Shown: positions 61,331 through 61,603 of the stretch, piece after piece
How the letters are laid out: each line of letters starts with the position of its first letter
Numbering within the stretch: the stretch's first letter is position 1
Virus record (IMG/VR): IMGVR_UViG_2721755662_000004
Origin: a virus
Taxonomy: Duplodnaviria > Heunggongvirae > Uroviricota > Caudoviricetes
DNA length: 64,000 bases
Reading direction: 5' to 3' (one strand)
Translations under genes and position numbers: made by a program
Notes under the pieces: model-generated
Database searches by the model: none
Told to the model about the DNA's origin: nothing
The model's input: the letters and a program-made list of their open reading frames with translations, nothing else

Positions 61331-61482
61331 TTTCTTCCTTGCCATTTCTCAATGATGACAAAGGGTGGATTCGGATTGGTATTGGGACAAAAGTGAGACA
61401 CACAAAGCTTTGCATCGGCTTACAAAGCTTTGCATGTTTTTCAATGTTGGGACGTGTGAGCGCAGAAATGACGGGCTATCTA

Positions 61483-61593
61483 ATTGATTTTAAACGATAC
61501 GTAACCAACTTTAAAATCTTTGCACGCCAGTTCGCAGGTTTTACAGCCAGTACAGCGGCTGGAATCGATAAAAAATCCATATTGTGTGGTCAT
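61483..61593 (-). pseudogene. ynfG: 5' remnant of ynfG (DMSO reductase-paralog Fe-S subunit) truncated by prophage junction
   Basis: MTTQYGFFIDSSRCTGCKTCELACKD then divergence and stop; lies directly downstream of ynfF. Confidence 0.75.
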
Positions 61594-61603
61594 GGGCTAC
61601 TCC

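Follow-up and report, generated by a model that had tools for sequence, protein, structure and literature searches.

A lambdoid prophage inserted within ynfG and the division of the ynfEFGH-dmsD operon in Escherichia coli

The DNA examined in this study is a stretch of 64,000 nucleotides (referred to as the window) that is base-for-base identical to positions 2472163..2536162 of the sequence of Escherichia coli FORC_043 (NZ_CP016828.1). The window opens inside a tyrosine integrase gene (int), with the left prophage junction lying about 1 kb to the left of the window start, and ends within the host gene ynfF. The features at the two ends and at the junction are listed in Table 1.

Table 1. Features of the prophage and of the ynfF-side junction in the window
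Feature	Position	Strand	Remarks	Evidence
ynfF, catalytic subunit of selenate/tellurate reductase	61604..>64000	-	3' 2397 bases in the window, rest past the window end	ORF list; RefSeq annotation of the identical record
Native 5' fragment of ynfG, codons 1-28 (MTTQYGFFIDSSRCTGCKTCELACKDFK)	61510..61593	-	Includes the first CxxCxxCxxxC motif	Pfam Fer4 matches; RefSeq pseudogene fragment
att core (overlap)	61509..61515	-	7 bp, TTTAAAG in the ynfG sense (CTTTAAA on the plus strand)	Comparison of attR, attL and attB
Phage-derived tail of the truncated ynfG ORF	61480..61508	-	9 codons (VGYVSFKIN) and stop	ORF list; junction comparison
Noncoding right prophage end, attP arm next to the core	61110..61508	.	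Shares 99% identity with the right end of Shigella phage POCJ13	
Prophage body, lambdoid, short-tailed, 933W/POCJ13-like	1..61508	.	Last ~1 kb and left junction outside the window	
Tyrosine integrase, 5' end	1..190	-	First 63 codons (ATG at 190); full gene 387 aa	PF00589
Excisionase-like ORF	46..417	-	123 aa; overlaps the start of int in another frame	HTH_17; TIGR01764, 29.3 bits (cutoff 28.8)

A truncated ynfG ORF (61593..61480, minus strand) starts ten bases downstream of ynfF. It comprises 37 codons (MTTQYGFFIDSSRCTGCKTCELACKDFKVGYVSFKIN followed by a stop), in which the native sequence MTTQYGFFIDSSRCTGCKTCELACKDFK is fused to VGYVSFKIN, a tail without similarity to YnfG. The native portion amounts to 28 codons, 26 before the att core and two within it, and does not differ from ynfG of intact genomes as far as the end of the core. 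A Pfam search with the 37-residue peptide gave one Fer4 motif only. The identical RefSeq record labels the 84 bases at 61510..61593 as an incomplete 4Fe-4S binding protein that is missing its C-terminus, with ynfF and ynfE coming next. A tblastn search of the 64-kb window for the remainder of YnfG, with a YnfG/DmsB query closer to DmsB, returned the 5' fragment only. The original prediction placed a prophage junction directly downstream of ynfF, on which the ORF and the boundary of host homology agree, and an interruption of the frame near 61515, which fits the end of host homology at the core. Its truncation of ynfG stands as well, with 28 native codons in place of about 26; the stop that it put after 36 codons comes after 37, at 61480, in the ORF list.

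The remainder of ynfG lies on the integrase side of the prophage, outside the window, at 2470597..2471136 of NZ_CP016828.1. According to the RefSeq annotation of FORC_043, the end of int is followed, after 52 bp, by a ynfG fragment described as missing its N-terminus and then by intact ynfH and dmsD, all in one orientation, and the layout is the same in the O104:H4 strain 2011C-3493. A second copy of the core is present at this junction (2471130..2471136), and the distance between the two cores gives a prophage length of 62,541 bp. The original prediction had proposed to look for the missing part of ynfG and a duplicated core to the left of the integrase, and both are found there, beyond the start of the window.

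The two junctions were compared with the empty site. In the ynfG sense, the ynfF-side junction reads ...GCGTGCAAAGAT-TTTAAAG-TTGGTTACG..., the int-side junction reads ...GAGCAACAAC-TTTAAAG-ATCTTGGCC..., and attB in intact genomes reads ...GCGTGCAAAGAT-TTTAAAG-ATCTTGGCC.... The only sequence common to attR, attL, and attB is TTTAAAG, and homology to intact genomes ends exactly at this core on both sides. The core corresponds to codons 27 and 28 of ynfG plus one base, so that the point of insertion lies in codons 27 to 29 and the expected overlap between the attachment core and the last conserved ynfG bases is borne out. The reconstructed attB of 407 bp is found at full length and with 100% identity in many genomes. 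When the two halves are joined over one copy of the core, as in the attB of the uninterrupted locus, they form an ORF of 205 residues that matches TIGR02951 (DMSO_dmsB) with 264.8 bits over model positions 1-161. The phage-side sequence has no similarity to ynfG at either junction, and the identity between attP and attB is limited to the 7 bp. Neither end of ynfG is duplicated on the phage, which makes the insertion a true disruption of the gene. An identical overlap of 7 bp is the length known for lambda. The attP sequence, ...GCAACAAC-TTTAAAG-TTGGTTAC..., is a reconstruction from attL and attR, since the six phage records with this integrase begin at int, in prophage coordinates, and none of them holds attP.

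On the phage side of the core, at a distance of 90-125 bp, the sequence ACAAAGCTTTGCAT occurs as an exact direct repeat (61402..61415 and 61422..61435, spaced by 20 bp) that may serve for protein binding; the palindrome CAAAGCTTTG is found in each copy. We do not interpret the repeat as an arm-type Int site, as the int-side arm has no counterpart of it and it is no more frequent in the window than expected by chance.

The integrase matches PF00589 with an E value of 1.5e-45, and its gene shares 99.4-99.8% DNA identity with those of phages POCJ13, 75/02 Stx, PhiR5_2, and phiSTEC1589-Stx1c. The ends of the POCJ13, 75/02 Stx, and PhiR5_2 records coincide with the junctions described here (that of POCJ13 corresponds to window position 61508); the phiSTEC1589-Stx1c record is trimmed short of the core. 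With a nearly identical int, the same site with a duplicated core, and the corresponding attB, the prophage belongs to the phiPOC-J13/75/02 integrase group inserted at ynfG (S1742). The early genes of the prophage include the start of int, the xis-like ORF, exo/bet/gam, a RecE-like gene, and kil, followed by regulatory genes (repressor, cro, cII, replication genes, the nin region, and Q) and late genes (SASA esterase, lysis, terminase, portal, capsid, and tail fiber genes, a gene for a 2784-residue LPD38 protein, and several antirepressor genes). In Stx phages, stxAB and tRNA genes are found in the gap between Q and the SASA esterase gene. In the prophage, the gap between Q (19694..20128) and the SASA (NanS-p-like) esterase gene (20894..22804) is 766 bp long and harbors a match to the small RNA STnc100 (20467..20672, 165 bits). 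No stx coding sequence is annotated in the prophage and no tRNA genes in the window, which places the element outside the Stx-converting phages.

The ynfG site has been described before. Phage phiPOC-J13 inserts site-specifically in S1742 of Shigella flexneri and, in MG1655 lysogens, in the homologue ynfG (Gray et al. 2014, PMC4193171), and phage 75/02 utilizes the same ynfG/S1742 site (PMC5447701). The Stx1a prophage of strain RM10410 has ynfG on both flanks (PMC10562709), the site of Stx1c phages has been reported as dmsB (PMC12029490), and for prophage E of O104:H4 the attachment site was given as rpsB/dmsB, at a location overlapping that of the ynfG junctions (Ahmed et al. 2012, PMC3486847). 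The insertion described here therefore occupies a documented attachment site and is already in RefSeq; the arrangement is known and the finding ordinary. The site should be named ynfG, even though several papers write dmsB. The true dmsB of FORC_043 (NZ_CP016828.1, 3481025..3481642) is part of an intact dmsABC operon. Its product is identical to the reconstituted YnfG at 193 of 205 residues (94%), with 81% identity at the DNA level. At the position equivalent to the att core, dmsB has TACAAAG and not TTTAAAG, which assigns the att site to ynfG and probably explains why the phage uses ynfG only.

Comparison with the Stx1-converting phages phiPOC-J13 (KJ603229) and 75/02 Stx (KF766125) reveals that attachment site and prophage boundaries are equal to the base and that int is 99.4-99.5% identical at the DNA level. 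Their right halves, with the tail genes, the LPD38/LPD5 giant protein gene, and the antirepressor genes, are about 91-92% identical to that of the prophage over 79-85% of 25 kb. Unlike these phages, the prophage lacks the stx operon and has the STnc100 match in the gap between Q and the esterase gene instead, and its early and regulatory region is a mosaic that better matches other Stx1a/Stx2 phages. Prophage E of O104:H4 2011C-3493/TY2482 has the same junctions and integrase and most genes in common with the prophage; the 2011C-3493 copy is shorter (59,920 bp versus 62,541 bp), and the two differ in the immunity region and in how many antirepressor genes they have at the right end. The integrase genes of epsilon34, ST64T, and phage L, which are of the P22 type, are about 70-76% identical to int at the DNA level, and all encode tyrosine recombinases (PF00589). 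P22 itself targets a tRNA gene and regenerates that gene, whereas the integrase studied here targets a protein-coding sequence and regenerates nothing. Insertion inside a coding sequence by a tyrosine integrase, with the gene left unrepaired, is likewise seen for 933W-type phages in wrbA, Stx1 phages in yehV/mlrA, and phages in sbcB, but their integrases, att cores, and target genes differ. Sites of these types are listed alongside ynfG/dmsB in two studies (PMC12029490, PMC10562709). What is added at ynfG, an internal gene of a five-gene operon, is the issue of polarity on ynfH-dmsD.

The junction might be an artefact of the assembly or the result of a single rearrangement event (an IS insertion or a deletion, for example), and not the product of site-specific integration; a misassembly was also what the original prediction had named as a possible source of error. 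This reading is refuted by the following observations, and we see practically no chance that it holds. A right junction of the type seen in the window, scored as 80% coverage or more of a 1.2-kb segment, occurs in 82 of the 5426 complete E. coli genomes searched, independent of one another, which speaks against misassembly, and the reciprocal int-ynfG' junction is present in 89 genomes. Among the 5326 complete genomes that have the locus, the empty site is intact in 5230 (about 98%) and not intact in 96 (1.8%), 89 of which carry the int-ynfG' junction. The 1.2 kb around the junction is 100% identical in 2011C-3493, HUSEC2011, and C227-11 of the O104:H4 outbreak lineage, and the sequence flanking the core is base-for-base identical in four lysogens of different backgrounds (FORC_043, O104:H4 2011C-3493, strain 05-3629, and an O10:H32 water isolate). 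Moreover, neither half of ynfG is missing and the two can be rejoined exactly over the duplicated 7-bp core, the ends of three phage records deposited independently fall at the same bases, and integration at the ynfG site has been shown experimentally (PMC4193171). An intact ynfG elsewhere, the other objection foreseen, left no sign among the matches in FORC_043 and its sister strain FORC_069. The ynfF-ynfG' junction matches a single place in FORC_043; in a distant search of FORC_069, the 3' part of ynfG matched no more than two places, which we infer to be ynfG' and dmsB because FORC_043 carries both. It would also be conceivable that the phage restores ynfG at the far junction with a substitute 5' coding end, so that the lysogen keeps a functional Fe-S subunit, given that many phages targeting gene ends or tRNA genes supply a substitute gene end. 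In favor of this, the int-side fragment contains an ORF of 184 residues (VVSNNFKDLGPEV...) that scores just above the cutoff for TIGR02951 (222 versus 214.1 bits) and that PGAP annotates in 2011C-3493 as a CDS for a DMSO/selenate family reductase complex B subunit. However, the same sequence is called a pseudogene by PGAP in FORC_043, and the split calls are an effect of the annotation threshold and not evidence of function. The sole possible start of this ORF is a GTG five codons before the core, upstream of which inspection by eye found no obvious purine-rich stretch that could serve as a ribosome-binding site; the frame has a TAG 11 codons upstream of the core (nine upstream of the GTG), and the phage-derived residues VVSNN are unlike the N-terminus of YnfG. 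The TIGR02951 match covers model positions 25-161 only, and C14, C17, C20, and C24, that is, the first CxxCxxCxxxC motif, are missing. Neither fragment in the lysogen combines a full-length TIGR02951 match with all four Cys groups, and the phage carries no duplicate of the displaced end of ynfG, as a target-gene-regenerating element would. Restoration at the far junction, which the original prediction had held open as its proviso, is thus largely refuted by the sequence and seems very improbable. Because the first Cys group of DmsB-type four-cluster ferredoxins ligates two of the four [4Fe-4S] clusters, neither fragment is likely to be functional, and the lysogen would make no functional YnfG.

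Our results strongly support the conclusion that a lambdoid phage has integrated into ynfG by conservative site-specific recombination, producing a true, unrepaired disruption that splits the operon, and we hold this account, which no observation contradicted, with high confidence. A temperate lambdoid phage, an stx-less relative of the Stx1 phages phiPOC-J13 and 75/02, entered ynfG at codons 27-29 by means of its P22-type tyrosine integrase. Recombination between attP and attB over the 7-bp overlap TTTAAAG duplicated the core, which is now present at both junctions. The first 28 codons of ynfG remain behind ynfEF as the 37-codon ORF, whereas the 3' part of ynfG, with ynfH and dmsD, is 62.5 kb distant; it follows int immediately and reads in its direction. 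As int and the xis-like ORF are open, precise excision would be expected to restore ynfG exactly, a prediction that follows from the conservative chemistry of tyrosine recombinases.

In physical terms the operon is divided into ynfE, ynfF, and 84 nucleotides of ynfG on one side and the 3' part of ynfG, ynfH, and dmsD on the other, 62.5 kb away; ynfE, ynfF, ynfH, and dmsD are intact ORFs in the lysogens checked. The ynfEFGH-dmsD genes form a single operon, for which FNR is a direct activator that acts at a site upstream of ynfE (-40.5; PMC3688515). YnfG connects the catalytic subunit to the quinol oxidase YnfH (PMC5203670), and DmsD, encoded only in this operon, is needed for maturation of DmsABC (PMC12096835, PMC4464133). 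This suggests that, as the original prediction held to be probable, the FNR-dependent ynfE promoter no longer drives ynfH-dmsD in the lysogen, a reasonable view that is less certain than the structural account. With the ynfE promoter cut off, whatever expression ynfH and dmsD retain would depend on read-through transcription that leaves the int region or on weak internal promoters. Near the left junction, three promoter-like sites were found compared with 3.4 expected in shuffled sequences, so that these matches, being at chance level, indicate neither loss nor retention of dmsD expression. A literature search on expression of ynfH or dmsD in O104:H4 or other lysogens gave nothing relevant.

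One reading of the disruption is that it is real but has almost no physiological effect, with DmsB and DmsC replacing YnfG and YnfH, dmsD still being expressed by read-through or from an internal promoter, and the site acting as a nearly neutral safe harbor. Ynf and Dms subunits are reportedly interchangeable (work ascribed to Lubitz and Weiner in 2003), dmsABC is intact in the same genome with a DmsB 94% identical to the reconstituted YnfG, the other four genes of the operon retain intact ORFs, and ynfH-dmsD follows int immediately, reads in its direction, and is not separated from it by a strong terminator. Against this, the ynfE promoter is the only promoter of dmsD documented in PMC3688515 and PMC4464133, and DmsD has been called essential for the maturation of DmsABC (PMC12096835). 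Neither a DmsB serving YnfE/YnfF nor reports on expression or phenotype of the lysogens were found in the literature. We regard an almost silent disruption as possible, if on the doubtful side. The opposite reading, argued from gene order, is that the insertion is strongly polar on dmsD, that DmsABC activity as well as the Ynf selenate reductase would be lost in lysogens at this site, the O104:H4 outbreak lineage among them, and that excision would act as a reversible switch of S-oxide/selenate respiration; this appears unlikely. A reversible switch by active lysogeny is exemplified by the Listeria comK prophage, in which regulated excision without lysis restores the host gene. The open int and xis-like ORF are a prerequisite only for excision of this type. 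On the unrepaired disruption itself, the claim that the lysogen lacks this Fe-S subunit is sustained as far as ynfG is not restored; as regards phenotype it may be overstated, since the intact DmsB is 94% identical and may buffer the loss of YnfG and mask a phenotype. The practical value of the analysis is small and lies in fixing the att site to the 7-bp core TTTAAAG in codons 27-29 of ynfG, in its proper naming, and in the figure for how often it is not intact. It raises the question of selenate and/or DMSO reduction in lysogens, including the 2011 O104:H4 lineage, a niche point of physiology.

Several further features of the prophage were observed. RefSeq annotates only 352..417, the first 22 codons of the excisionase-like ORF, as a pseudogene; the ORF is open over 123 residues, and this annotation may therefore be wrong. 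An Ais-like gene, encoding an LPS core heptose(II)-phosphate phosphatase (25102..25683, minus strand), separates the lysis genes from the terminase gene, reads in the opposite direction, and looks like a moron, that is, a cargo gene not needed for phage growth.

Antirepressor genes are associated with two kinds of RNA elements. At the right prophage end, matches to sRNA-Xcc1 (RF02221), all on the minus strand, are found at 59696..59785, 60579..60664, and 61114..61198 (67.7, 73.4, and 49.9 bits, the third being below the gathering score of 53), each just upstream of an antirepressor/BRO-type gene, giving a tandem arrangement of leader and ant. Two P1-type immunity modules (c4 antisense RNA, isrK, and a1/b1 targets) are present on the plus strand at 15542..15740 and 17127..17325; downstream of them lie genes for ORF6N (15794..16459) and Ant (17378..18061). 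The prophage is thus equipped with several antirepressor systems, and two different kinds of RNA control are represented among them. The interval from the att site to the first antirepressor gene contains a promoter-like sequence (TTGACA-18-CATACT) with a long hairpin and a U-run immediately behind it (61228..61312, minus strand; hairpin and U-run at 61302..61228; z = -3.7 against shuffles), an element that could be a small RNA or an attenuator. As ynfF and the phage antirepressor genes have the same orientation and the hairpin and U-run lie between them, this element would block read-through from ynfF into the antirepressor genes.
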